A stretch of DNA of 64,000 bases, taken from positions 64,001 to 128,000 of IMG/VR virus record IMGVR_UViG_3300050821_017570, one strand, 5' to 3'. This document shows, in pieces, positions 5,705-51,325 of this stretch (position 1 is its first letter; the number at the start of each line of letters is the position of its first letter). Below the pieces are notes generated by a model that was given only the letters and a program-made list of their open reading frames with translations, was not told where the DNA came from and searched no databases. A program made the position numbers and the translations under genes. This DNA comes from a virus.

Positions 5705-6257
5705 AGGTGGTTTCCAAACTAGAAAGGAAGGGGCGAAACATCTCAATACTTGCCAAACAGTCATCAAGGCTCCGGTGGGCCGGATTACCCTTCGGGCGCG
5801 GCACACCCGTCACCATCTCCTTGCCGATCTCAAAGCTACTAACGTCGAGTAGACGGTAGCTGAGTTCTGACAAGCAGTTAGGTGTGTGCCAGCGGAGCCA
5901 CCGAACGTCGAAATGTACGCTGCTGCCGGCCAGGTAGGTTTGCTGGCGATCCACACGATGCGAGCGAATCCACTCGATCAGATCGGTATCACTGAAGTAG
6001 TGGCAGTCACAGATACCCTGCTCGTACCGCTGGACGATCTCACCGATCAGACCCGATTGGGTATGCAGGCGGACGCACTGGTGGTCCATCCCCTCGACGC
6101 ATTCATCATACGGCATGCCGGCCAGCCAGTGGAAGCGGCCCAGCTCAGTGAGATGTCGATCCGTAACGATACATCCGACCTCACGGATCTGGCCATCTTC
6201 GGGCTCAAGTCCCGTGGTCTCCAGATCCAGCCATACCAAACGTAACGGGTCAGTCAT
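5691..6257 (-). CDS. orn: Oligoribonuclease (DEDDh 3'-5' exonuclease)
   Basis: LVWLDLETTGL (ExoI), LAGSSVHFD (ExoII), YRLLDVSS, HRSLDD (ExoIII), matching Orn. Confidence 0.88.
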   Translation of the reverse strand: MTDPLRLVWLDLETTGLEPEDGQIREVGCIVTDRHLTELGRFHWLAGMPYDECVEGMDHQCVRLHTQSGLIGEIVQRYEQGICDCHYFSDTDLIEWIRSHRVDRQQTYLAGSSVHFDVRWLRWHTPNCLSELSYRLLDVSSFEIGKEMVTGVPRPKGNPAHRSLDDCLASIEMFRPFLSSLETTYGTH

Positions 6258-6266
6258 AAGTTCTTT

Positions 6267-6548
6267 CTAGTCAGGCTGATAGATCAGCCAGACGAGGTCA
6301 TGCGGGTCAGGTCTCAGATCGCGCCACCAGCTATGGATGGCAGGTATGCCAACATACCAACAGTAATGGTCCGAACGGTGTGCGGGGTCAAACCCAGTGT
6401 GGGTGAACCATACAGTCGAGCCATCGGATTCGAACGGAGGCCGCGGTAGGGCTACGACCTGTGTGATCCGAATCCTCCAGGCCTGTTCCCGACACAGCCA
6501 GACTTGGTTTGCCTTGAGTGGTTCTAACATCTTAACCTGCAGGCTCAT
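6267..6548 (-). CDS. GQIW-family small protein #22
   Basis: MLEPLKANQVWLCREQ...DLVWLIYQPD. Confidence 0.78.
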   Translation of the reverse strand: MSLQVKMLEPLKANQVWLCREQAWRIRITQVVALPRPPFESDGSTVWFTHTGFDPAHRSDHYCWYVGIPAIHSWWRDLRPDPHDLVWLIYQPD

Positions 6549-39900: not shown

Positions 39901-40036
39901 CATCGAGACCAGCACGCTGAGTGATACGGAACTCATTATGCTCGGGCGACAGGTCAGCCTCAGTGACGGTAGGAATCAGAACCTGATTACGTGGCCGCAC
40001 CGGTAGTGCGACAATTTCAGACAATGCGGTTGTCAC
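36986..40036 (-). CDS. polA: Family A DNA polymerase with N-terminal uracil-DNA-glycosylase-like domain
   Basis: UDG-like PRVIVTLGSDA...VVPTCNP; exonuclease SFDTEYG; TGRYRS..NLQ, motif A EADFKTAEL, motif B AKAVLFGLLYG, motif C PVHDA. Confidence 0.92.
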   Translation of the reverse strand: MTTALSEIVALPVRPRNQVLIPTVTEADLSPEHNEFRITQRAGLDVPWFCYEVCKDLVALPEARIDYRWHLPVQTPGYMGGTGFGWRIADYMLIGPICSQSDIEFRTCLRNFWGHLLAEQAVEAGLPLADMLVTHAVRFPMPTKDMKPLESHKKACAVYARMDCEACQPRVIVTLGSDALKVLYGKTAKLDTYRGSVHEWKGIPVVPTCNPFVFVGSTAGIDVFRSELARAVDVGLRNYVSGACLMKPDYRVCQTVEEVVKLRDDMEADSATLVSFDTEYGNLTGREEDGLLRTIQFSWAAGKAALVVIRGVGCTEIHTPEQLNQIRELLRQIMDHPARRLEGHQLRGDIKAAGEFEINLDHKLATGFCTLLARNLLHGSTGDESDGLDHLIRAYVPEFGNYWKELEEWLSTGSAVRPDGIKLSGRPSLLAHGYGYVPDEILFPYALRDADATWQAARKVEAELDQHPKLKSLFWNLVMPTALHLLDVERQGILVDQARLREIHYQYQPVYEALLERFRDTIGWPKFNPSSSKQRTSLLFSTSKFKDKKPLPEGVRGLSFTPYCNTDKYPKLWTDIVADHKELQNSPCTKANILDLMYTQSLGAAKTDEEKADLQVLKMLKHLSVLSKFLSTYLVLPKQNRYGEKEDGKSFQNNICRDGRVRTHFHQTSETGRYRSFKANLQTNPNKQETAALEVLVDYKFDGMTPKEYLRRTDDVKAPADLIPKEDRIKLRPFKSCYVPAPGYTLMEADFKTAELCIVAFVSGDVAMSKAIDQERDIHSETAVRCFQLPEGADLPAALAAIEAGDSKPYKAWTKRVKSLYDALRTAAKAVLFGLLYGRSAGALAREIGKVVPGFTQAQGQAIIDYIASTFPQVWAFLKAAAKTAVENEYLETVFDRCRYFPGAATASRSVQAAIARQAMNCGIQGAVADLLAQAGINLYNFRYHTETGRRLGFRIILPVHDAFYFEVPNESVNEMKTVIELCMRTMNPIPKTNGRRLGVDISVYPNRLGEKPKAA

Positions 40037-41139
40037 ACAAGACTCCTATGGGTAAGTGGTACCTGCTGACTCAGCAGTTGATGCATAACAGCTAAGCCGA
40101 GATCTGCCGGGTCTGGTACCTGAACATCTTCACCCGCAACTTTTCGTCGAGCGGTCTCAAGAATGCCTGGCGCCCAGTTGAACTGATAGACTGGTAGCTC
40201 ACAAAATTGATTCAATCGTCTGCACGCCTCGGCAGCGAACACTTTGTCATGTGCGCGTGGATCCGGCACTGACGTCTCGGGATCCAAACAGACCACACAG
40301 GTACGATACTTGGCTCCGATCTCGCGAGCCATCTTGTCATCAATCGTTTTCCCAAATATCGCCATACCTGAAGGCCCACAAGCGATCGAACTCGTAATAC
40401 CCTCACAGATGATCGGAACGCTCGTTGAGCCTATCCGATCGATTCCATAGGGCGTCTTACGATAACCGGGCGACAGGATCCATCGTTTGGGTTCTCGCTC
40501 AGTTGGCAGAATCGTACGTCCCTGCCAACCAACGAGTTTGCCATTGTGGTGGATAGGAAAGATAATGCGGTCCTGGACGAGTCGGAAATCCGGATCCCTG
40601 CCGTAACAGAAACAAGCACCGTAGTAGGATCCCAAATACGCACCAGTCAAACCTGTATACTTATGAAGCAAAAACAGGTTCGCTGGGTGATCACTCGACA
40701 GTTCCTGAAGCGGCACCACACACGTAGGTAGTCGGGTTTCTTTGTCTGGTTCACGAACCTGAACTGGCTGCGGGGGCTGAATCAATTCGATCACACCTGC
40801 CGTGCTGGTCAGTTCTTTCGCAATCGGCTCCCAGAAAGCAGGCGACCTAACCGGGCAATCGCTGTTGTAGCAGCACGCCAGGTGAGTGAGAAGACCCCAT
40901 CCTTCCCAGTCGGTCAACCATCTGTAGCTGAGCCCGAGTCGCCCCTTCTGATCCCCACAGAGCGGGCAGTTGATCCAATACTGCTCGTGTGATCCATCCT
41001 TCACGAACCGCTTAGCGCCAGCACCGCGGTCAGTCGTCACGACCCGCGCCTGCAGTTGCTCTCCAGGCGCCGTGATCTTTACATTGCCAAATTTGGCCTG
41101 TAGGTACCGGTACAACACCGGGTTAAGTGGACCGCTCAT
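40033..41139 (-). CDS. DNA primase (Zn finger plus TOPRIM)
   Basis: CPLCGD...CYNSDC; RIIFPI...VGWQGR; IICEGITS TOPRIM. Confidence 0.82.
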   Translation of the reverse strand: MSGPLNPVLYRYLQAKFGNVKITAPGEQLQARVVTTDRGAGAKRFVKDGSHEQYWINCPLCGDQKGRLGLSYRWLTDWEGWGLLTHLACCYNSDCPVRSPAFWEPIAKELTSTAGVIELIQPPQPVQVREPDKETRLPTCVVPLQELSSDHPANLFLLHKYTGLTGAYLGSYYGACFCYGRDPDFRLVQDRIIFPIHHNGKLVGWQGRTILPTEREPKRWILSPGYRKTPYGIDRIGSTSVPIICEGITSSIACGPSGMAIFGKTIDDKMAREIGAKYRTCVVCLDPETSVPDPRAHDKVFAAEACRRLNQFCELPVYQFNWAPGILETARRKVAGEDVQVPDPADLGLAVMHQLLSQQVPLTHRSLV

Positions 41140-42629
41140 ACCCGCTCGACCTGAACCGCATTACGCGCCCGTTCTTCGACCGGCAACGCATGTGACAGTT
41201 TAGCTGGGCTATCCTTGGTTACGAACCGCTTACCGCGTTGTTCCCATCCATCGGCGCGTTTGAAGCAAGTGCCGTTCTCGTTCCGCACCAGGATGTTTTC
41301 ACCCATATTGTCGTCACGAGATTTCGCGATTCGCATCTTCTGAACGTCAGAGCCCTTTGATCCAGGTAGGGCCTTTGGGTTGCGCGCGTTGAGGGTCAGG
41401 CAGTATCGCATCGATTCACAGAATGACTTGCAGTCTTCACCATCGAAATACGAATTATCCGCGAACGGCCCGCGCTCATTGGCTTTCGAACTCAACTGCT
41501 GTGCCACAACCCCAATGTTGTTGTGAGCGGATGCTACCCTAGCAACCCAGTCGGCCACTGCCCGCAATGGTAGATCACGCGCATCACCAAACCGCTTTGG
41601 ATCCATGCCCTTCATGTGGCTGGCTAGTGGGCCAGCCCAGTCGATGCAAAAGATCCCCAACCGGCCACTATGGCGACGTTCGAGATTATGGATCTCATTC
41701 TCGATCTCATTGATACCACCAGGGTTGGCGATCTGATCCAGAATGTGAAAGTTCTTATCCAGAAGGGCAAGCTTAGCCTGCATGATCTCAATCTGATCGG
41801 CTGACCACTGAAGCCGTCGCGCAATCTCCGGCATGTTAAACATGCCATCGGAAATCACATCGAACGGTACACCGGTGCAGCAGCTCAGGATCTTGGCCCG
41901 TATGATGGGCTGAAACCCCTGCTCAGTCATCACAAGGAGCGCCGGTTTACCCAGCAGAGCGTTCGAGATGGCCAGCTGGGTCAAAAAGGTAGTCTTACCC
42001 GATCCCTGGCCTGCCAGTACCGCAATCCCTGCGCCAGCTACCGGTCCAGCACCCTTGCCAAACGATGAATCGACAAAATCAACTCCAGTGCGAACCCGCT
42101 CTACCTGTTCGGTCTCCATGGTGGAGATACCCGAGATGATAGTGGATCCAGATGCACCCGCATACTGGGTACGGATCTTGTGGATGTGATCGCCCAGCTC
42201 GTGCAGGGTGCCTGTCTTCTCAGCCTGCTCGATTTGTTGCTTAATAGCAGCATCTCGGACCACACGGTGACAGATGAACTCAATCGTCTCGCTGGCAAGG
42301 CCACCAGAGCCAGCGGCCAAGTGGTGTGAGTTTTTCAAAAACTCAAAAGACTTTTCGAATATCTCCATCGCACGGGGGTCGCCTCGCTCGGGAAACAATA
42401 GAGAGGTGACTTCCGACAGCTGGTTAAAAAGAATCAAATCACCAGGGATCTCACGATATTGTTGGTAATACCGCTTGATGATATCAAACAAGATGCCCTG
42501 CCAGGTCTCACCGCCTACCAGGGTATGTGTGAGATGCTGCGGAAGAATGTATTGAAATGACCGCTCTGCTACCGCCGGATCATGCAACACATGAGCCAGC
42601 ATCACCGATACCTTAAATGCTGGAGTCAT
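41136..42629 (-). CDS. dnaB: DnaB-like replicative helicase
   Basis: TGVDFVD, Walker A AGQGSGKTT, IFCIDWAG, VAQQLS, IAKSRD. Confidence 0.82.
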   Translation of the reverse strand: MTPAFKVSVMLAHVLHDPAVAERSFQYILPQHLTHTLVGGETWQGILFDIIKRYYQQYREIPGDLILFNQLSEVTSLLFPERGDPRAMEIFEKSFEFLKNSHHLAAGSGGLASETIEFICHRVVRDAAIKQQIEQAEKTGTLHELGDHIHKIRTQYAGASGSTIISGISTMETEQVERVRTGVDFVDSSFGKGAGPVAGAGIAVLAGQGSGKTTFLTQLAISNALLGKPALLVMTEQGFQPIIRAKILSCCTGVPFDVISDGMFNMPEIARRLQWSADQIEIMQAKLALLDKNFHILDQIANPGGINEIENEIHNLERRHSGRLGIFCIDWAGPLASHMKGMDPKRFGDARDLPLRAVADWVARVASAHNNIGVVAQQLSSKANERGPFADNSYFDGEDCKSFCESMRYCLTLNARNPKALPGSKGSDVQKMRIAKSRDDNMGENILVRNENGTCFKRADGWEQRGKRFVTKDSPAKLSHALPVEERARNAVQVERV

Positions 42630-43198
42630 AGTTTGGCAACCTCATCGGGAAACAGTTCGGCCGCAACCGGTTGCTGAGCCAGCTCTTTACGAGCCTCACC
42701 AGCATATTGGTTCAACACGCCAGGGATGTTGTACTTGAGGGCAAGTACACATCGGAACAGTGGGCTAAACGACCTGAACTCGTCAAGGATAACGAGACGG
42801 GGCTCCATGACCTTGATGGCGTCTGAAAAGGTGTGCCATTGAGCCATATAGAAGTCAATATGACTGATCCGCTGCTTAGCCTGCAGTCGAACAATGTCAT
42901 CGGCGATCTTGGCCGACTCTAATACCTGTGGGTACCAGATACCGTACTGGATCATAAGAGGAACTCGTTGCATAACGAACTCCTCAGCTGTCTGTCCACG
43001 CTGCCGGCAAAGCCACGCCGCACGGACATAGCTGGAGACTTTTGCACTCACCCGCTTGTCACAATATTGGGCCCTCACTTCAAGAAACAGATCCATGATC
43101 CGCTTAGCCAAGACTTCCAGCTCAGGCGTAACGGCGAAATGTTCCCCATCTGGGGTCAGGTTTTGATCTTTACGTGACCGGCTCAATCTTGAATCCAT
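42626..43198 (-). CDS. Hypothetical protein (helicase-loader position)
   Basis: 190-aa helical ORF between the two helicases. Confidence 0.6.
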   Translation of the reverse strand: MDSRLSRSRKDQNLTPDGEHFAVTPELEVLAKRIMDLFLEVRAQYCDKRVSAKVSSYVRAAWLCRQRGQTAEEFVMQRVPLMIQYGIWYPQVLESAKIADDIVRLQAKQRISHIDFYMAQWHTFSDAIKVMEPRLVILDEFRSFSPLFRCVLALKYNIPGVLNQYAGEARKELAQQPVAAELFPDEVAKL

Positions 43199-44636
43199 TC
43201 TGTCGATAGACTTTGAATCGGTTACGTGAACGAGCCTGCAGATCGGGAGAGAACGTATCGTTGAAATCGATCAGTAGCCCTTTTTGCTTCTGACCATCCG
43301 ATCCCAATCGACTCAATCGACCCGGTACCTGTACCGAGTTGATCGAACTACTGGTACCATCGGCGCGGACCAAGATATCGAGATCAAGAAAGTTAACGCC
43401 CTTAGACCATATGAAGGTGGCGATCACGCGGCGCAGCGTACCGGCGCTGAACTGCTCCTTGTAGGCAGCGCGTTCCTTACGCGTACAGGTTCGCTGACCT
43501 TCCAGGATACCGCCACGCTTCGCCAGCCTATCGAGCTGTCTATCATCCGACTCACCCGTCACGACGGTAAAATCGGGCATCAGCTGCTGTAGTCGTAACG
43601 CATGTTCGATCTTGTCGACCATGATGAGGATCTGAGGATCCTCCCGCTCCAGCCGATATCTAGCATACTGCACCGAGTATCGGATCATTTCGTTACGGTA
43701 CTGGTTCTCCCAGATACCTTTACGGTTCTTGAGATCAGGCCGCACGATCGACTGGACGTTGGGGCCATGGTCGACCCGGAAGACCCAGACGTCAATCGGC
43801 ACCACGTTACCCATCTCGACGGCTTCCTGGTAAGGGACTTCGTATATGATGGGTCCAAACAGAGCCTCGATGTATTGGTCTCCGCCATCCGACCGACCGG
43901 TTGGTGAGGCCGTCATACCAATAAACTTGGCTCGTGGAAATTGGACCAAATCCTCACGGAATCGTTCGCTCACCAAGGCATGCGCTTCATCGCCTACCAA
44001 CAGATTAGCGTTACGATGACAGTGCTTGAGCGAATGGGAAACCGCAACCGTTACTCGCTGAGGATTCACAGTTCCATCACCACAAAAGCCAATCCGCCCA
44101 TCCTGGGCCACCAGTGACTGGTAGGTGTCACGCGCGATATCGATAGACGGGACGGTGAATATGATGTTTGCGTCAGGGTACAGGTGTACCAGTTGACGCA
44201 TGATAAAAGTCTTGCCCCATCCGGTTGGACAAACCACTGTGCCACAACGATTTGCAAGAATCGATGCCAATACGGCGGGTTGACTGCCACGCCACTGGAT
44301 GTCGGCAGGAATACAATCGAACCGTGGAGCCGGTAGCTCACACGGAATCCAATCCCGCTCCTCTACAGTGAAGCCAGCATCTTTTAGCCCACCAATGATC
44401 CTTGGGCCGAATCCACTGAAGGTGAAGAACTTGGCCACACCTTGTGGGTCTGTGTCGTACCAGAAGACACGCTGTGGCTTCTGAATGACTTGCGGCTTCC
44501 ATCCATTTCTCGGGTCGGGATCACCGCGCTCGATCAACGTGATGGAAAGGTCAGACTCAAACAACTGCCCTAGGTAGGCGGGTTCAATCGACATCACCCT
44601 ACCCAGGTAGGTCACGATAGCTGTTTTGTCGCTCAT
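43170..44636 (-). CDS. Superfamily 2 helicase (UvsW-like)
   Basis: PTGWGKT, GDEAH, GMTASP, KGVNF, QVPGRLSR. Confidence 0.88.
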   Translation of the reverse strand: MSDKTAIVTYLGRVMSIEPAYLGQLFESDLSITLIERGDPDPRNGWKPQVIQKPQRVFWYDTDPQGVAKFFTFSGFGPRIIGGLKDAGFTVEERDWIPCELPAPRFDCIPADIQWRGSQPAVLASILANRCGTVVCPTGWGKTFIMRQLVHLYPDANIIFTVPSIDIARDTYQSLVAQDGRIGFCGDGTVNPQRVTVAVSHSLKHCHRNANLLVGDEAHALVSERFREDLVQFPRAKFIGMTASPTGRSDGGDQYIEALFGPIIYEVPYQEAVEMGNVVPIDVWVFRVDHGPNVQSIVRPDLKNRKGIWENQYRNEMIRYSVQYARYRLEREDPQILIMVDKIEHALRLQQLMPDFTVVTGESDDRQLDRLAKRGGILEGQRTCTRKERAAYKEQFSAGTLRRVIATFIWSKGVNFLDLDILVRADGTSSSINSVQVPGRLSRLGSDGQKQKGLLIDFNDTFSPDLQARSRNRFKVYRQNGFKIEPVT

Positions 44637-44750
44637 GAGGACCTTAGGTCGGGATAGCTACGATAACAGAGTTCCATCAATCTCAATAGGTTGGTTATGT
44701 CCCCCATCCGGTTGTAGAACCGGGGCCATGACCCACTAGTGATTGATACC

Positions 44751-44795
44751 AAAAGAAAAAGATCCCCCGGCGCCTTTCGGCCACCGGGGGATCTT
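44751..44795 (-). terminator. Strong Rho-independent terminator after Ubl operon
   Basis: AAGATCCCCCGG/CCGGGGGATCTT stem followed by TTTTTCTTTT on minus strand. Confidence 0.8.
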
Positions 44796-44846
44796 CCTCA
44801 CCCACAACCGGCATTCCGCCGGAGTGAGTTCATCTGATGCTGAAAC

Positions 44847-44864
44847 CTAGCCCTTGCGGGCTAG
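44847..44864 (-). other. GNRA hairpin directly after Ubl stop codon
   Basis: CTAGCCC-GCAA-GGGCTAG on minus strand. Confidence 0.6.
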
Positions 44865-44866
44865 CC

Positions 44867-45487
44867 TCACTTGTTGCCCTTGATGGGCTCGGTGAGGAGG
44901 ACGAGATCGCCATCCTGGACTTCGGTATCCAGGGTGGCGGGATCGCCGCCGATCTTCAGATCGTAGTTGCCCTTCACGAGACCCGCGTGGCGGAGAACGT
45001 CCGCGACGGTGTCACCGTGGTCGACAGCCACCGGGGTCAGGCGACCCGGGAACTTGCCGACCTGAACGGAGATCTGGTTGCCCTTGATGGGCTCGGTCAG
45101 CAGAACCAGGTCACCATCCTGAACCTCGGTCTCCAGAGTCGCGGGATCGCCGCCGATCTTGAGATCGTAGTTGCCCTTCACGAGACCCGCATGCCGCAGC
45201 ACGTCGGCCACGGTATCGCCGTGATCGACCGCGACAGGCGTCAGACGACCAGGGAACTTGCCGACCTGGACGCTGATCTGGTTGCCCTTGATGGGCTCGG
45301 TGAGGAGGACGAGATCGCCGTCGAAGACCTCGGTGTCGAGGTTGGCGCTCTCGCCACCGATCTTGAGGTCGTAGTTGCCCTTCACGAGACCCGCGTGGCG
45401 GAGCGCATCCGCGACGGTCGAGCCTGCATCGCAGGTGATGGGGGTGAGACGACCGGGGAACTTGCCAACCTGAACGGAGATAGCCAT
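44867..45487 (-). CDS. Triple tandem ubiquitin-like (beta-grasp, ThiS/MoaD-like) protein, polyubiquitin-like precursor
   Basis: AAGGAAG RBS; three 68-69-aa units ISVQVGKFPGRL...TVAD.L...DGDLVLLTEPIKGN. Confidence 0.88.
   Translation of the reverse strand: MAISVQVGKFPGRLTPITCDAGSTVADALRHAGLVKGNYDLKIGGESANLDTEVFDGDLVLLTEPIKGNQISVQVGKFPGRLTPVAVDHGDTVADVLRHAGLVKGNYDLKIGGDPATLETEVQDGDLVLLTEPIKGNQISVQVGKFPGRLTPVAVDHGDTVADVLRHAGLVKGNYDLKIGGDPATLDTEVQDGDLVLLTEPIKGNK
44873..45487. repeat. Three 204-bp tandem coding repeats (44873-45076, 45077-45280, 45281-45487)
   Basis: Units 2 and 3 are 67/68 aa identical, with many synonymous differences. Confidence 0.95.
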
Positions 45488-45560
45488 GTGAAACTTCCTT
45501 GAGAGAGGTGGGTTAGAGGCCCACCTTTGTAACAAACAACATTTTCAGTACAAGCGCAAA

Positions 45561-46274
45561 CTAACCGGCAGCCTTCTTGAGGAAGGTCCGGGGCAACAGG
45601 ACAGTAAAGGCGGGGCTCATAGCGACAAGGACGTCCCACTGTGGGGCTTCCTTCCCTTCCTTACCCTGTTTGTGGGCCCACCACTGGATCAGCGTCCACG
45701 TGGCGTATCCTGCGAGAATCTCGGCAGTCGGACCTACCGTGATCTGCGTCCCACAGGCGCTTACCGTCGCCTGCTCATCCCCATACAGATACCCTTCCCA
45801 GAACTTGACCTGTTCGGGGCTATTGGGATCGATCGCAAAGACACGCGCCTGGTCAGCCCCCATGCGGGTCTCGATCATCAGCTTCAAGTAGGGATGGTAC
45901 TTGATACTGGCGTCCCAAATCTCCTTCCGACTCTTCATCGTGTCGGTCAGGAGGAAAACGAACGATCCGAGATCCTGCTGGCCCTCGTAGGCCTCATTGT
46001 GCGCAGTGATCTCGATCTCGGTCTGGCGCCGGATCATCTCCTTCAACGCCTCGACCTTCGGCTTTCCAATGTCATCGATGCCAAACGCCTGATTTGGCAC
46101 ATTGTGGCCTTCGATCTTGTCGAAGTCCCAACAGTGAAGATTCTTGATGCCGAGCTTGGCCAGCGAAATGGCCACTCGGGAACCGGTTGCACCGCATCCG
46201 ATGATGTCGACCCGCTGCTCGCCAAAAGCATACGGGTCGAACACCTCCAGATGCCGCATCGTATTAAGCGGCAT
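45561..46274 (-). CDS. E1-like ThiF/MoeB-family adenylyltransferase
   Basis: IIGCGATGS, DFDKIEGHNVPNQ, GKPKVEA, LLTD, putative catalytic Cys in SACG; no CxxC zinc pairs. Confidence 0.9.
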   Translation of the reverse strand: MPLNTMRHLEVFDPYAFGEQRVDIIGCGATGSRVAISLAKLGIKNLHCWDFDKIEGHNVPNQAFGIDDIGKPKVEALKEMIRRQTEIEITAHNEAYEGQQDLGSFVFLLTDTMKSRKEIWDASIKYHPYLKLMIETRMGADQARVFAIDPNSPEQVKFWEGYLYGDEQATVSACGTQITVGPTAEILAGYATWTLIQWWAHKQGKEGKEAPQWDVLVAMSPAFTVLLPRTFLKKAAG

Positions 46275-46287
46275 ACCTATCCTGGCT

Positions 46288-47349
46288 CTACGGGCCGCGC
46301 GGGGCCTGTGGGTCTGGCTTCACTTGAGTCGACGGAGCTTGCTCCGCCCCTTCAAGAATCTCCGCAACGGCAGGGTAAGTGTCCTTTGCGTTGAATCGTG
46401 AGGAGACTGAGGTTTCGGCAGGAGGGCTGTGGTGCGGGGCTCCGCAAAAGTGCTCCTCGTGATCGAGGACCTCCTGACCCGATGGTGCCACCGGAGTCGA
46501 AGAGGTTGTGCCTTCCAGCTCGATCACCGCAACCGTGTCGCCCAGCGACGGCAGATGGGTGAACGGCACCATCTTGGCACGCACGCCACAGCCCTTCTTC
46601 TTGTACGGGCAGGTCAGCATGCTGAACATCTGGCGACGCTCAACCGTGACCTCCTGCCGACAAGCCGAACACCAAGCCGGCACTTCCTGTTCGTCCCAAG
46701 GCTTATACGGACGATATCCCTTGAAGTCGTCACCATCGCTCCAGCTGGTACGTCTCCAGTCCTGGCTCGCACCGCTCCAGGTGAGAGGCTTGACCTTGAG
46801 GTCAAACTCCGCCTGAAGGGCCGCCCGACGCGGCGAATCCGACGATGCCTCGACCGCCCACTCGATGTCGAGAACCGCATAATGCTTGTCGAAGTCGAAC
46901 AGATCGAGCTTCAACTCACCACGCTTGTTGCCGATCGCTCGGATCAGGAACGGAGCCTCGTTGCGCTTCCAGAGCCCGACCTGAGTGTCGTCCTGACCAG
47001 ACGGTTCCACCCCCATCGTGTGATGGGAATGGAACCAGTAGTAGAGACGATTCACGTCGGCCTTGATGACCGGATTGGCATTCCGGCCCAGCTCGACCGC
47101 GAGCTTACCCAGCCCCTCGGTCGAGATCTCGTTGGTACCGGCGTTGACCTGCTGGTCGATCAGATAGACCCGCTGGACCACAAGGGTCCCATCGGCCAGC
47201 TTCTCCACCGCACCGAGCATCCCCACCTCAACGGTGGCGATGTCGGTGATGATGGCCTGATCCTCAAGAGCCTGGCGGCTGATGATGATCTTGGGAACCT
47301 GAGCCTGAATGTCATTCTTGAACTTGTGCCCAACAAACGTCATGATCAA
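46288..47349 (-). CDS. JAB/MPN+ metallopeptidase (deubiquitinase-like) with C-terminal Cys cluster
   Basis: VEVGMLG Glu plus HSHHTMGVEPSGQD = exact H-x-H-x7-S-x2-D JAMM motif. Confidence 0.88.
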   Translation of the reverse strand: MIMTFVGHKFKNDIQAQVPKIIISRQALEDQAIITDIATVEVGMLGAVEKLADGTLVVQRVYLIDQQVNAGTNEISTEGLGKLAVELGRNANPVIKADVNRLYYWFHSHHTMGVEPSGQDDTQVGLWKRNEAPFLIRAIGNKRGELKLDLFDFDKHYAVLDIEWAVEASSDSPRRAALQAEFDLKVKPLTWSGASQDWRRTSWSDGDDFKGYRPYKPWDEQEVPAWCSACRQEVTVERRQMFSMLTCPYKKKGCGVRAKMVPFTHLPSLGDTVAVIELEGTTSSTPVAPSGQEVLDHEEHFCGAPHHSPPAETSVSSRFNAKDTYPAVAEILEGAEQAPSTQVKPDPQAPRGP

Positions 47350-49043
47350 TCCTTCTTCGCACCAGCGGCCTTCGCCGCCGGCTTGGCCATCTCGGCCAGC
47401 TCAGGGTATTCGGCCAGCTCGGCAGCATAGCGAGCCTTCTTCTCGATCGCCAGGGCAGCGCGCTGCGCCTTGACGACCTCCGGATCGGCCACCGGCCACC
47501 GGTTCACCTTGCTACCCGCGCTGTCGTCCACATTGACCGACTGCAGGTACAGGATGACGGCCACGATGGCCGCCTTGTACTCGAACGACGCCACCAGCTC
47601 GGTGACGGTCGACCCGATGTTGCCCCAGCAGGGCTTACCGCTGGAGAACACGTGCGGAGCCTGCATGCCCGTCTCCTGGGCATCGACGGTCTTGCCGATC
47701 GCGAACATCTTCACATCACCATTGGTGGTGTTGATGTTGATGCGCATGCACCCCACGGCATGGAGCTTGTTGACCCGAGGATCCGTCACATAGAGCGGAT
47801 CGGTCTCGACGGTCAGCACGTCGCCCTTGAAGGTGACGTTCGCCACATGCGCCAGCTCACGCAGAGCAACGAACTCCTTGGTCAGCTTGGCGGTCTGCTG
47901 ATCGGTCGTCAGGCCACGGGCCTCGGCGATCGCCTGTAGATGCTCGATATTGCGGGTCGACTCGATGATCTGACGCTTCGCCGCTGCGAGCGCCTCCTCT
48001 TCCTTCTTGACGTTCTCGACCGCGTTCTTGCGCTCGATCTCGAATCGCTTCATCGACACCGCGACATACTTCTCGCAGAGGTCGCGATAGTTGGGCGGGC
48101 GATACCCACGCGTCATGATCTTGACCGCTTCGGTCAGATAGGTCTTGAGCAGCGTGAGGGTCTTCCCATCGTTCACCGCATGGACGGCATCGAAGGTGAT
48201 GTAGAGGTTGTTGTCGTTGAAATAGCCAACCTCATCACCCTCGGCCGACATGATCTTGCCACCCTGCTCCCACGGCACGAAGTGGCCGGGCGGACGCTCG
48301 GTAACCTGATGCCCCCACATGGTCTCGGGCACCACGAAACGGGAATCCGGGCCACCCGCATCGGGCGCCGACCAGATGAACACGTTGAACGTGTCACCGG
48401 CGATCGGAGCCTGCGCGCGGCCGTGCGGGATGTAGACGTCGATGTTGCGCTTCACGTAAGCGCCCAGGATGTCCTTGAACGCCTTCAGAACCGAGTCACG
48501 GAAGCCCGCATCGGTTGCGATCGTATAGTCGGTCCAACCCTTCGGGGTCACGACGACGGCCGAAGCCTCCATCGTGCCGATCCGCACCTTGTGGGCGGTC
48601 GCCGGCTTGGCCGGAGCGGCCGTGGCAGCCGTGGCAGCCACGGCGGGAGCCGCTGCCGCAGGAGCAGCCGCCTGAGGTGCCGCAGGGGCGGCCTCAGGAG
48701 CTGCGGGCGCGGGAGCCGCTGGGGCAGCCGGGGCCGGAGCGGCACCGGCCGTGATGGCGGTCAGCTCGATCGCATTGATCGAACTGTGCTGCTGGGCACC
48801 GATGACCCAGCCGGCGCGAGCCAGACGGTCGAGACCTTCACGCGTCACGAGGAAGCACTGCTGACCGTCAACGTTCATGCCGTTGGGGGTCATGTTGTAG
48901 GCACCGACGTTGGCCAGGTCTTGCGCCGACACCACATCGGTCCGAATGGCGAAACTGACATCGACGACCGTCGGAACCGCCTCAGGAGTGACTCCCTCGG
49001 GGATCGTGACGGTGGCCGGACGAGGACGAGAAGTACGAGCCAT
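47346..49043 (-). CDS. Large protein with coiled coil and C-terminal E2 (UBC-like) domain
   Basis: AAAGGA RBS; C-terminal APHVFSSGKPCWGN matches the prokaryotic E2 PH...C active-site signature. Confidence 0.72.
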   Translation of the reverse strand: MARTSRPRPATVTIPEGVTPEAVPTVVDVSFAIRTDVVSAQDLANVGAYNMTPNGMNVDGQQCFLVTREGLDRLARAGWVIGAQQHSSINAIELTAITAGAAPAPAAPAAPAPAAPEAAPAAPQAAAPAAAAPAVAATAATAAPAKPATAHKVRIGTMEASAVVVTPKGWTDYTIATDAGFRDSVLKAFKDILGAYVKRNIDVYIPHGRAQAPIAGDTFNVFIWSAPDAGGPDSRFVVPETMWGHQVTERPPGHFVPWEQGGKIMSAEGDEVGYFNDNNLYITFDAVHAVNDGKTLTLLKTYLTEAVKIMTRGYRPPNYRDLCEKYVAVSMKRFEIERKNAVENVKKEEEALAAAKRQIIESTRNIEHLQAIAEARGLTTDQQTAKLTKEFVALRELAHVANVTFKGDVLTVETDPLYVTDPRVNKLHAVGCMRININTTNGDVKMFAIGKTVDAQETGMQAPHVFSSGKPCWGNIGSTVTELVASFEYKAAIVAVILYLQSVNVDDSAGSKVNRWPVADPEVVKAQRAALAIEKKARYAAELAEYPELAEMAKPAAKAAGAKKD

Positions 49044-49066
49044 TTGTATCCTTTGAAACGACCAAG

Positions 49067-51325
49067 TCACGCCTCACCGACGTGAATCACATGGTCAAGA
49101 AAACCTTTGAGTGACGCATCATGTGTGACAATCAGAATCTGTCTGCCCTTGGCTTGCGAAATCTCGCGTAACCTCAGGAGCAGGTTCTGAAGATGGACGA
49201 TGTTTGCCTCGTCCAGATAAGCCGACGGTTCATCAAGAACCAGCAGGCCCATGTTCCGGGCAAACGTATCGGCCATCGCTAGCCTGAACGCAACCGACGC
49301 AATGATCTTCTCACCTCCGGATAGGCGAGATGCGTCTACCTGAACACCCTTCTTCTCTCCACTGATGAAGAGAATACGGAACGCCATATCGGCGTCTAAC
49401 CACATTCGAAACGGAGATTCGAGAAGTAGCAAATACTGCTCGATATGGTTGTTGAGAATCGCAGAGTATTCACGCATCGCCAGGGCTGGATACCCAGATA
49501 CATGCATAGCCTCTCTGACCTGTCGAACGACTGCGACCCACGCGTTATCGTCAGCCTCACGCTGAGACTGCTCAAGTAGGCGTCGCGCCTCACCTTCACG
49601 CTGTGTCGCTAGCCCGCTGGCGACACCAACTTTCAACGTCAGTTCCTGTAATGCGCGGCTGAGACCAGGATAAGCTTCCATCTGGCGCTTAGCCTCGGTC
49701 ACTTCCTCCATAGTTGGAATGTTGTCAATCTGACCTAGCTGATCGAGATACTCCTTTGCCTTACAAGCCGTCGCAGCCGCCTGGGTGATCCGCGTGACCA
49801 ACCCAGCGTAGCGCTCATTCGCTACCGCGACAGCCGTTTGAAGCGTTTGGAACTCCGTGACGATCGCTCGTAACTGAGTCATCAGGACGCTATCCGCCGG
49901 CTCGGTAGGCAGGCCTCGCATCTGACTGGTAATCGATTCGACATCACGACTCAGCAACTGGTGGGCGCGAGCCAGCTCGGTCAGTCGGGTCAACTCGGCC
50001 GTCTGGAGTCGCAGGTTCGTCTTGAGAACGTCGGCTTCACCTTTCAGCAACTTGCTCGTAATCTGATCGATCTGATTCAACTGGCCCTGTACGGTAGCAC
50101 GCTGCTCTTGCAGGACTGCTAATTCGGACTTCTTCCGCTGAACCATCTCTGGCCCGCCATGAACGGTCTGACCACACGTCGGACAGACCCCACTTCCAAG
50201 GTGCTGACACTCACTCGACAGTTGGCGCTGGCTATCCGATAGCCGTGCCAGCTCAACCTCCAGGGCTTCCTGACCTGGCATCTTCGGCCGCGCGGCTGGC
50301 GTCTTAACCATCCATTCGAGTGACTCCAACCGAGCGGTGTCGGCCTTGATCTGATCCGCTAGCGCGGTTTGATCTGCCTGGGAAAATGGTGCCAGCTGGG
50401 TCTTCTGAAGCTCAGCAAGCCGCTGACTCAGCTCAACCCATCGTTCCCATTGTGTGTGAGCCTTCTCCAGCGATTTGATCTGTTCGACCGCACTAATCGC
50501 AAGAGCCTGGCTAGCGTCACGCTGTGCTTGTTTGGCCACCAACGCTTGGTGGGCCTCATCTGCTTCCAGCCGAGCAGCCTCACACTCTTGCGTCATCCGC
50601 TCGTACTGCTGGGTCGCCTGGGCAACCGCAGCCGTATGTCGGATCGCTTCACTGGCCCGCTGAAGCGTCTGCTGGTGAACCGCCAGTCCCTCTAACGCGA
50701 CTTGCGTCCGTTGAAGGTCGGCTTCTGCCGCTACCAGTTCGGCTCTCGCCTTGGTGGTTGCAGCAACCGCCTCGGCCAGAATGTCTGTCAGGTTAGGCGT
50801 GACCTGGTAGAGATTCTGCTCAACCGTCAGGAGTCGATAGACCTGCTCGGTTCGATCGAGCCCAAAGCTAGCCTGGAACTCCTTGAGCCGGCTGGTTGGG
50901 CTGGCACACAAGATGGCCTCAATCTTGGTCTGCTGGATGAAAACATTGTCCAACAGGAGATCGATCGGAGCGCCAAACATGTCCTGGATAAACAGATCCA
51001 GTTCACCGGCCTTGTTGATACGGGTGCCTGGTCCGGTCAGAATCGACTTGGCCGGCAGATCACGATAGATGTGCCGGACGATCTGATACTCGGTACCGGC
51101 TTGATCGAACAGACCTCTGACCTCTGCGTCGGCCTGACCGTCGCGGATGTTGTCCTTGTTGTTGCCGCTGTTGACGCTTCGACCCGTGAACAACAGTCGG
51201 ATGGCGTCGCAAAGATTCGACTTGCCACTTCCGTTGGCACCCACGATACCGTTCAGGCCAGGTCGAAACTCGACCTCCAGACTTCGATGTTGGCAATAGT
51301 TCGTAAGCAGGAGTGATTTTAGCAC
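49067..51325 (-). CDS. sbcC: SbcC/Rad50/gp46-like SMC ATPase
   Basis: GANGSGKS, long coiled coils, Zn hook CPTCGQ, LSGGE signature, LVLDEP, IVTH. Confidence 0.92.
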   Translation of the reverse strand: MLKSLLLTNYCQHRSLEVEFRPGLNGIVGANGSGKSNLCDAIRLLFTGRSVNSGNNKDNIRDGQADAEVRGLFDQAGTEYQIVRHIYRDLPAKSILTGPGTRINKAGELDLFIQDMFGAPIDLLLDNVFIQQTKIEAILCASPTSRLKEFQASFGLDRTEQVYRLLTVEQNLYQVTPNLTDILAEAVAATTKARAELVAAEADLQRTQVALEGLAVHQQTLQRASEAIRHTAAVAQATQQYERMTQECEAARLEADEAHQALVAKQAQRDASQALAISAVEQIKSLEKAHTQWERWVELSQRLAELQKTQLAPFSQADQTALADQIKADTARLESLEWMVKTPAARPKMPGQEALEVELARLSDSQRQLSSECQHLGSGVCPTCGQTVHGGPEMVQRKKSELAVLQEQRATVQGQLNQIDQITSKLLKGEADVLKTNLRLQTAELTRLTELARAHQLLSRDVESITSQMRGLPTEPADSVLMTQLRAIVTEFQTLQTAVAVANERYAGLVTRITQAAATACKAKEYLDQLGQIDNIPTMEEVTEAKRQMEAYPGLSRALQELTLKVGVASGLATQREGEARRLLEQSQREADDNAWVAVVRQVREAMHVSGYPALAMREYSAILNNHIEQYLLLLESPFRMWLDADMAFRILFISGEKKGVQVDASRLSGGEKIIASVAFRLAMADTFARNMGLLVLDEPSAYLDEANIVHLQNLLLRLREISQAKGRQILIVTHDASLKGFLDHVIHVGEA

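Follow-up and report, generated by a model that had tools for sequence, protein, structure and literature searches.

A phage gene of three tandem ubiquitin-like units as a candidate processed precursor in a phage-borne conjugation module

Polyubiquitin genes of eukaryotes (UBB, UBC, yeast UBI4) encode beta-grasp units that follow each other head to tail without spacers, each with a complete conjugation tail and with a short cap after the last one. The unit proteins are identical or nearly so despite synonymous divergence of their genes, and the chains are processed by deubiquitinases. In archaea, the SAMP/UbaA/HvJAMM1 system combines small ThiS/MoaD-like modifiers with a minimal E1 and a JAMM peptidase; SAMPs are single units that end in Gly-Gly and do not need an E2. 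ISG15 consists of tandem ubiquitin-like (Ubl) domains of which the last alone carries the conjugation tail. Tandem Ubls of bacteria were likened to polyubiquitin in 2006, among them the 'polyUbl' of the 6e operons (Iyer et al. 2006, PMC1779556), and those studied since then are intact multi-domain proteins. Bil (BilABCD) and Bub operons hold Ubl, E2, JAMM and E1 genes. The JAMM enzyme of Bil pre-processes the Ubl C-terminus (Chambers et al. 2023, PMC10557695), and the bacterial Ubl3 of Bil/Bub stays uncut and forms dimers and Ca-dependent filaments (Gong et al. 2024, 10.1101/2024.11.21.623966). E1-like families mostly have beta-grasp proteins with a Gly end as their substrates; the MccB-family enzymes, described as unique in that respect, act on short peptide substrates ending in Asn. 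The reaction of MccB goes through a succinimide, and MccA is a heptapeptide and not a beta-grasp protein (PMC11118369).

The locus described here lies in a window of 64,000 nucleotides (positions 64,001 to 128,000 of IMG/VR record IMGVR_UViG_3300050821_017570; the virus record is 187 kb long and rated 95% complete). A minus-strand operon in this window encodes, in this order, an E2-like protein, a JAMM protein, an E1 and a triple Ubl (Ubl3), followed by a terminator. We hold with moderate confidence that Ubl3 is a processed poly-Ubl precursor of a phage-borne ubiquitin-like conjugation system. In the literature that was searched, with incomplete coverage, neither a phage poly-Ubl nor a Ubl family with KGN ends was found described. 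The features, in window positions, are:

47346..49070, minus strand, E2-like domain protein of 574 aa (565 aa if the start is the ATG at 49043)
47349-47903, minus strand, E2/UBC-like domain, about aa 390-530 of the 574-aa protein, motif P-H-V-x6-C (Cys481)
46288..47349, minus strand, JAMM/JAB metallopeptidase of 353 aa, catalytic domain about residues 1-190
45561..46274, minus strand, ThiF-type E1 of 237 aa (Pfam ThiF, 1.1e-20)
45488..45560, minus strand, E1-Ubl spacer of 73 nt with ribosome-binding site and GGTGGG/CCCACC hairpin (sequence)
44867..45487, minus strand, poly-Ubl gene (Ubl3) of 206 aa, three tandem ThiS/SAMP2-like beta-grasp units, then cap Lys and stop
45281..45487, minus strand, unit 1, aa 1-69, C-terminal PIKGN
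45077..45280, minus strand, unit 2, aa 70-137, C-terminal PIKGN
44873..45076, minus strand, unit 3, aa 138-205, C-terminal PIKGN
44870..44872, minus strand, cap codon Lys206 after the last KGN (sequence)
44750..44866, minus strand, 3' untranslated region with three hairpins (RNA fold)

The Ubl3 reading frame starts with the ATG at 45487, with an AAGGAAG ribosome-binding site 7 nt upstream. An earlier note on this DNA had reported three head-to-tail Ubl units that all end in PIKGN, without linker and with one extra Lys. Translation and Tandem Repeats Finder (period 204, 3.0 copies, score 815) bear this out, the units of 69, 68 and 68 aa directly abutting each other. Ubl3 shares with eukaryotic polyubiquitin the spacerless head-to-tail arrangement of beta-grasp units, the complete conjugation tail on each unit, the short cap after the last one and, in units 2 and 3, near-identity of the unit proteins despite synonymous divergence; processing of the deubiquitinase type is the presumed shared route, putative for Ubl3. 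It differs from polyubiquitin in the sequence family of its units (ThiS/SAMP2, not ubiquitin), in its I-K-G-N tail where ubiquitin has L-R-G-G, in being encoded by a phage beside E1, E2 and JAMM genes of its own, and in that the units of most of its relatives are not identical.

The assignment to the ThiS/SAMP2 family comes from Pfam and from the PDB. Pfam matches of Ubl3 were ThiS (E 5.8e-7, 30.4 bits against a curated cut-off of 22.5), DUF348 and SAMP2, and the ubiquitin family was absent from this list. A profile search of the PDB with the Ubl unit placed SAMP2 as the closest solved sequence relative (E 1.2e-4), with PF1061, MoaD and ThiS also among the matches; ubiquitin appeared with an E of 0.72 only, and no Bil or Bub Ubl chain was found among the nine matches. 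The ThiS match in Pfam, the presence of ThiS and MoaD among the closest solved sequences and the minimal ThiF-type E1 would also suit a protein that is not conjugated, either a ThiS/MoaD-like sulfur carrier or a multivalent decoy for host Ubl or CBASS enzymes. We consider such a role very improbable. Although Ubl3 passes the ThiS cut-off, its three units end in K-G-N and not in Gly-Gly, the ORF list and Pfam show no ThiG, MoaE or sulfurtransferase/rhodanese gene in the operon, and the Ubl is always linked to a JAMM and to an E2-like protein with a conserved Cys. For a decoy, moreover, an own E1 and E2 would be needless.

Units 2 and 3 are identical at 67 of 68 residues, as had been noted earlier, and their DNA is 85% identical: 30 of 204 nt differ and a single residue changes, from E to D. 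Twenty-eight of these differences are at third codon positions and the remaining two lie within a synonymous AGC/TCC serine pair. The 49-nt segment that the note had compared (44891-44939 with 45095-45143) indeed holds 11 differences, all at third positions and with one replacement. By comparison, when 30 substitutions were placed at random, the mean number of changed residues was 20, and none of 200,000 trials gave fewer than 11. The dN/dS calculation proposed in the note gave dN 0.020, dS 0.85 and a ratio of 0.024 for units 2 and 3 (NG86), corroborating that these two units are under strong purifying selection at the protein level. Units 1 and 2 differ at 50 of 204 nt and 12 residues (dN 0.163, dS 0.93), and units 1 and 3 at 39 of 204 nt and 11 residues (dN 0.142, dS 0.51); with only 68 codons, the dS values of all pairs are imprecise.

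The 11-12 residues at which unit 1 departs from units 2 and 3 fall in two patches, codons 16-22 and 45-54. Unit 3 has the amino acids of unit 2, while its last 42 nt and other stretches are exactly those of unit 1, and it is the non-adjacent pair of units 1 and 3 that has the lowest dS. The history of the repeat is mosaic, given the identity of the last 42 nt of unit 3 to unit 1.

The pattern of units 2 and 3 recurs elsewhere in the family. An independent di-Ubl (L012) has two units that are 100% identical over 70 codons with 22 synonymous nucleotide differences; the unit pair of L013 differs by 3 nt, and near-identical units are also present in P0027, P0032, P0108 and P0066. Protein identity of units 2 and 3 despite a dS of 0.85, and the like case of L012, support the precursor reading. 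In most other relatives, however, identity among the units of a protein is 63-82% and dN/dS 0.1-0.34, and the protein identity of units put forward in the note thus stands for units 2 and 3 and for L012 and does not extend to most of the family.

Synonymous divergence of adjacent protein-identical units probably guards the repeat against recombinational loss. One may speculate that there is selection for DNA difference between adjacent repeats, which would prevent deletion by recombination.

The family to which Ubl3 belongs is large but not readily seen by simple searches. No match to the Ubl3 protein was found in 50,697 deposited phage genomes (tblastn), and word-based searches gave three relatives only. 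A family profile built from eight Ubl units matched 1594 cluster representatives at E <= 0.001 and 443 at <= 1e-10. In PHROGs, Ubl and E1 fall in unnamed families only, and the JAMM and E2-like proteins have no match. The comparison of unit copy number across homologous loci, also proposed earlier, showed it to vary from one to four units per protein. Among the best 151 relatives, a list ranked by summed score and enriched for multi-unit proteins, there are 16 proteins with one unit, 100 with two, 28 with three and 7 with four.

The internal units of these 151 relatives conserve the K-G-N tail as strictly as the terminal units. KGN closes 98 terminal and 126 internal units, RGN 10 and 12, KGA 9 and 9, and KGG 6 and 5, respectively; G-N forms the end of about 85% of the family's units, and G-A and G-G together that of about 10%. 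Among the units of one protein the identity in the last nine profile columns is 0.84-1.00, and the final N, A or G is uniform, e.g. RIRGG in all four units of one protein and KIKGA in all three of another. Between proteins, six of the nine tail columns are 0.18-0.58 identical and the final K-G-N alone is shared (0.74-1.00). This identity within and divergence between proteins suggest that all tails of one protein track the same partner enzymes. In addition, 11 relatives are di-Ubls fused through KGN to a further conserved domain, and such a Ubl would be conjugable only after cleavage.

The AF2 model of Ubl3 (pLDDT 90.8, pTM 0.42) contains three beta-grasp domains, and its confidence dips at the three tails (residues 61-70, 131-140 and 201-206). 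Since pTM is as low as 0.42 despite a pLDDT of 90.8, no packing between the domains is predicted, and Ubl3 is predicted to be a string of independent beads. The best fold matches of the model in the PDB are linear tri- and tetra-ubiquitin, followed by ISG15.

These observations bear on the main alternative to a processed precursor, a tandem Ubl that stays in one piece, as ISG15, BilA or the bacterial Ubl3 do, and in which the whole 21.7-kDa protein would be attached to targets or would self-assemble and only the last tail would be activated, after removal of the Lys. The place of ISG15 among the good fold matches is in keeping with this, but in ISG15 the conjugation tail is present on the last domain only, whereas the internal tails of the phage family are conserved like the terminal ones and co-vary within a protein. 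The three-domain Ubls of Bil/Bub do remain uncut and build dimers and Ca-dependent filaments (10.1101/2024.11.21.623966), yet the phage units are nearer to SAMP2, ThiS and MoaD, without any Bil/Bub chain among their nine PDB matches. The divergence of units in most relatives (63-82% identity) fits specialised domains as well as a supply of monomers. The variable copy number and the absence of predicted inter-domain packing, on the other hand, speak against an intact protein, and we regard this alternative as unlikely, though it deserves to be kept in mind.

The processed precursor is further favoured by a model of JAMM(1-195) with Zn and Ubl(70-145), which reached an ipSAE of 0.85 against 0.03 for the best control, with a run agreement of at least 93% and a partner pLDDT of at least 88; 58 of 80 solved complexes and 2 of 110 mismatched pairs attain this mark. 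In the modelled interface, JAMM residues 74, 107, 109, 117 and 120 lie against Ubl residues 129-139, that is the tail and the junction with the first residues of the next unit. The interface list is silent on which residue or bond faces the zinc (G|N or N|X). The model supports a predicted binding, to which likeness to the solved JAMM-ubiquitin complexes may possibly contribute.

The note had placed the cut at KG|N, so that each monomer would have a C-terminal Gly. This is disfavoured by the family, in which 60 of the best 151 relatives end exactly at G-N, G-A or G-G. Because of these ends, and because the residues that follow in other proteins vary in length and kind, Asn is probably the mature end of the Ubl, with the cut at KGN|X and the final Lys alone as the cap. 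The last unit is followed by no residue in 60 of the 151 proteins, by one in 40 and by two to five in 19, and among the roughly 40 one-residue caps Lys is the commonest (15), with Asn (5), Arg (5) and Ala (4) behind it; the spacers between units range from 0 to about 13 aa. Aligned with ubiquitin, I-K-G-N falls on L-R-G-G, the very form that one relative approaches with its fourfold R-I-R-G-G, and the mono-Ubl P0004 ends in S-G-G-K; by this alignment the Asn would occupy the position of ubiquitin Gly76. A Gly end with a one-residue cap is an option kept open by a distant subgroup ending in KSG, KSGN or KSGK. An internal VKGN, put forward in the note as a check on cleavage specificity, is present in all three units of Ubl3, but it is specific to this protein, the aligned residues of relatives being A-E-G or S-S-G.

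An Asn at the mature end brings a difficulty of its own for a processed precursor, as E1 enzymes do not usually act on a C-terminal Asn (PMC11118369), and the near-universal Lys-Gly-Asn end raises the question of whether such an E1 can activate a terminal Asn. The substrate of MccB ends in Asn like the phage Ubl, and this shared residue is a lead only. It is conceivable, if rather doubtful, that the units are released at KGN|X and activated at a C-terminal Asn instead of a Gly by MccB-like chemistry (Asn adenylation), possibly by a succinimide route and with iso-Asn-linked conjugates as the outcome. If true, ubiquitin-like conjugation would gain a new chemical branch, borne by phages and with further members in assemblies labelled Melainabacteria and Patescibacteria.

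Deamidation of the terminal Asn, as in Pup, was considered and rejected as the main reading, there being no Dop/PafA-like gene and an E1 being present.

The Asn could also act on its own junction, in the manner of asparagine peptide lyases and of intein C-terminal cleavage: formation of a succinimide would break the next bond autocatalytically and the JAMM would only remove conjugates. Asn is conserved in about 90% of unit ends, a small or polar residue mostly comes next (A 45, S 28, Q 20, T 13, G 13), and succinimide chemistry of Asn is known in the E1 superfamily through MccB (PMC11118369). However, the G-A and G-G variants (about 10%) are unable to cyclise and yet have the same multi-unit layout, the JAMM model puts the junction on the catalytic residues of that enzyme, and no helper residues for lyase chemistry were identified. 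We give autocatalysis very little credence.

The enzymes that a processed precursor would need are encoded directly upstream. In the JAMM protein, E74, H107, S108, H109, S117 and D120 are invariant in seven homologues and fit the motif E...H-S/T-H-x7-S-x2-D. Pfam Prok-JAB was matched by three of the seven homologues and the JAMM protein of the window itself had no Pfam match; by sequence, the JAMM profile found only Rpn11 in the PDB (E 0.88) and the single protein nothing useful. The 574-aa protein consists of an Ala/Pro linker, a coiled coil and a C-terminal E2/UBC-like domain in which the P, H and Cys of the motif are invariant in the homologue alignment. Its C-terminal 185 aa were modelled with a pLDDT of 88 and a pTM of 0.83 (AF2). 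The best fold matches are E2 enzymes, with middling scores in both Foldseek (E 0.02) and VIA-align (Z 7.0-7.6, rmsd 3.1-3.4 A over about 115 residues). The order of elements is helix, beta-meander, invariant P-H, invariant Cys and helix, with Cys92 of the model immediately before helix 94-105. Given the middling scores, the domain is better called E2-like than a proven E2.

The E1 is a single adenylation domain of 237 aa with GxGxxG, DFD, ETRMG and Cys174 as invariant columns in five homologues. Its profile matched MccB (8.9e-11), PaaA, ThiF (1.3e-9) and UBA5 in the PDB, scores too close to rank. The nominally best match, MccB, covers profile positions 11-98, only the nucleotide-binding part, and is within 4 bits of ThiF and hence non-discriminating; it starts at MccB residue 107, and the N-terminal region of MccB has no counterpart in the phage E1. 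The only PADLOC models matched were Cap2-type 'E1-E2' models, on E1 residues 17-105 (the Rossmann part), with nothing for the JAMM and E2-like proteins in this 2023 version, which may lack Bil and Bub models.

The phage operon has the gene set of Ubl, E2, JAMM and E1 in common with Bil and Bub. It differs in that BilD combines an inactive and an active adenylation domain in tandem with a mobile Cys domain, and Bub has fused JAB-E1 or E2-E1 proteins, where the phage E1 is a single ThiF domain in a gene of its own; the phage E2-like part is the C-terminal domain of a 574-aa protein, and the host element is a phage and not a defence island. From the SAMP system, with which it shares small ThiS/MoaD-like modifiers, a minimal E1 and a JAMM peptidase, it is set apart by tandem units, the KGN end and the E2-like partner. 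The architecture is accordingly polyubiquitin-like and the gene set Bil/Bub-like, with an E1 architecture and model matches that are not those of Bil/Bub.

The mechanism that we infer, comprising cleavage, the exact scissile bond, thioester transfer and conjugation, would proceed as follows. The operon would be transcribed as E2-like protein, JAMM, E1 and Ubl3 and stop at a strong terminator. Ubl3 would fold as three independent beta-grasp beads on flexible ...E-P-I-K-G-N tails, and the JAMM would bind each unit with its tail in the active-site groove, cut the junctions and trim off the final Lys, with the bond after Asn as the most likely site (KGN|Q, KGN|K). The products would be three modifiers of about 7.3 kDa, one of type 1 and two near-identical ones of type 2. 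The 237-aa ThiF-type E1 would adenylate the exposed C-terminus, and the Ubl would pass via Cys174 of the E1 and Cys481 of the E2-like protein to target lysines, the JAMM being able to reverse the conjugation. Tandem units would increase the Ubl dose per transcript.

We favour this processed precursor because the tails are conserved throughout the family, the copy number varies from one to four, the domains appear independent and the JAMM is modelled on the tail; the presence of an E2-like fold and motif, a JAMM motif and an E1 together lends it further support. The polyubiquitin-like precursor served by a JAB and an E1 that the note had envisaged is thus well supported, though indirectly, by tails, copy number, fold and JAMM-tail contact; the KG|N cut, the general identity of units and the promoter discussed below are not supported. 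Compared with the tandem bacterial Ubls studied so far, the family is the stronger candidate for a genuine polyubiquitin-like precursor of prokaryotes or viruses, since each of its units keeps the tail, the copy number ranges from one to four and selection can keep units identical. On the precursor reading, phages would moreover possess their own complete Ubl conjugation systems, encoded among their replication genes, and would be more than mere targets of bacterial Ubl systems.

The gene neighbourhoods of relatives point to one module that works with different numbers of units. Wherever flanks were available, the Ubl gene adjoins a ThiF gene; ahead of the latter lie a JAMM gene (H-S-H-x7-S-x2-D) and the gene of a protein that has the P-H-V...C motif. 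The same E2-like/JAMM/E1 module occurs across Ubl copy numbers in varying gene order, and in L007, a tri-Ubl locus, the order is exactly that of the window. Scans anchored on the E1 are unbiased for Ubl copy number. A scan of IMG/VR with the single E1 protein found nothing, and the alignment-based scan succeeded with 34 loci, in which the detected Ubls were mono-Ubls, or di-Ubls in L024-L027; the JAMM motif was upstream of the E1 in 32 of these 34 and was undetected in L024 and L025. A further 38 loci were found via the E1 in assemblies labelled Melainabacteria/Obscuribacterales, Saccharibacteria and other Patescibacteria, some of them on Mb-size contigs, with mostly mono-Ubls ending in G-N. 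Among the E1-anchored loci single-unit Ubls dominate and no three-unit Ubl was found, and amplification of the Ubl is therefore not essential: the system works with a single unit, and three units are a minority state within it.

The Ubl module sits within a replication and repair block, as its neighbours demonstrate. The operon lies downstream of an SbcC-like gene (49067-51325; Pfam SMC_N 5e-21), and beyond the terminator the minus strand continues with an SF2 helicase gene, three ORFs and a family-A DNA polymerase; ORFs 42626-43198, 41136-42629 and 40033-41139 had no Pfam match at the thresholds used. The last of the three hairpins in the 3' region is a long GC-rich stem followed by UUUUUCUUUU (U-run), and the RNA fold of the region has -69.3 kcal/mol and a z of -6.6, with none of 200 shuffles equally stable. 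By its GC-rich stem, its U-run and this z, the hairpin is the operon terminator.

The note had further suggested a separate promoter for Ubl3, TTGTAC-16-TACAAA. The string is real (45526-45553) but weak, with only 8 of 12 positions in agreement with the consensus and the final T missing, and the promoter scan has no entry at this place; the scan missed the terminator too, which makes its silence weak. A contig from an RNA library covers 45459-45609, across the E1-Ubl spacer, compatible with read-through and no proof of it. The metatranscriptome libraries may contain DNA and their contigs show no transcript ends. Among the contigs of four soil runs, no copy-number variants (joints) were seen across 44500-47500; as the assemblies break inside the repeat and consist of contigs only, this absence carries little weight. 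Near-identical DNA was present in two soil metagenome runs, and exact-match contigs covering most of the Ubl gene and the E1-Ubl spacer were found in two soil metatranscriptome libraries from different studies.

In chromosomal relatives of the E2-like/JAMM/E1 module, the gene immediately 3′ of E1 encodes a double AAA+ unfoldase of the ClpB/ClpC type. The two loci come from Obscuribacter/Obscuribacterales assemblies (7.0- and 1.1-Mb contigs), and no Ubl was found in either with the unit profile, built from eight Ubl units.

L057:4733-7213 and L072:4700-7072, ClpB/ClpC-type double AAA+ unfoldase (AAA_2 8e-66, ClpB_D2-small)

The position of this gene next after E1 hints that the Ubl system may feed an unfoldase, by analogy with Pup or ubiquitin.

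Relatives of the Ubl protein differ in what accompanies the Ubl units. The members of a di-Ubl subfamily carry a conserved domain of 100-180 aa, joined immediately past the second KGN (the usual Lys-Gly-Asn unit end), for which there was no Pfam match and which ends in a coiled coil; these proteins thereby resemble ubiquitin-fusion precursors. A single Ubl unit forms the C-terminus of a 165-187-aa protein in six phage loci; the N-domain of this protein is helical, its linker is acidic, and S-K-G-N is the exact C-terminal end. After the mono-Ubl of a Paceibacterota locus, which ends in KIRGN, come two zinc-ribbon proteins; one is a fusion with a trypsin-like peptidase domain.

P0077, P0100, P0102, P0110, P0117, P0119, P0120, P0123, P0141, P0143 and P0149, di-Ubl fusion members (example L011:83-931)
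L019-L023 and L028, about 5710-6280, mono-Ubl with helical N-domain (IMG/VR phage contigs, 110-174 kb)
L051:5867-7609, mono-Ubl and zinc-ribbon genes (Paceibacterota assembly, 743-kb contig)

The A-P-H-V...C motif occurs twice in the E2-like protein of another relative (L013:2656-4593), at residues 364 and 586, and this protein may therefore possess two E2-like domains. The start codon of the window's own E2-like gene (47346-49070) is ambiguous: GTG at 49070 yields 574 aa and a 4-nt overlap with the sbcC-like stop, and ATG at 49043 yields 565 aa, the product recorded in the protein collection.

Hairpins lie on both sides of the window's Ubl gene, one just 5′ of its ribosome-binding site and another beginning 3 nt past its stop codon, before the main terminator.

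45507-45525, minus strand, GGTGGG/CCCACC hairpin with 7-nt loop, E1-Ubl spacer
44847-44864, minus strand, short GC hairpin of the GCUAGCCC/GGGCUAGG type
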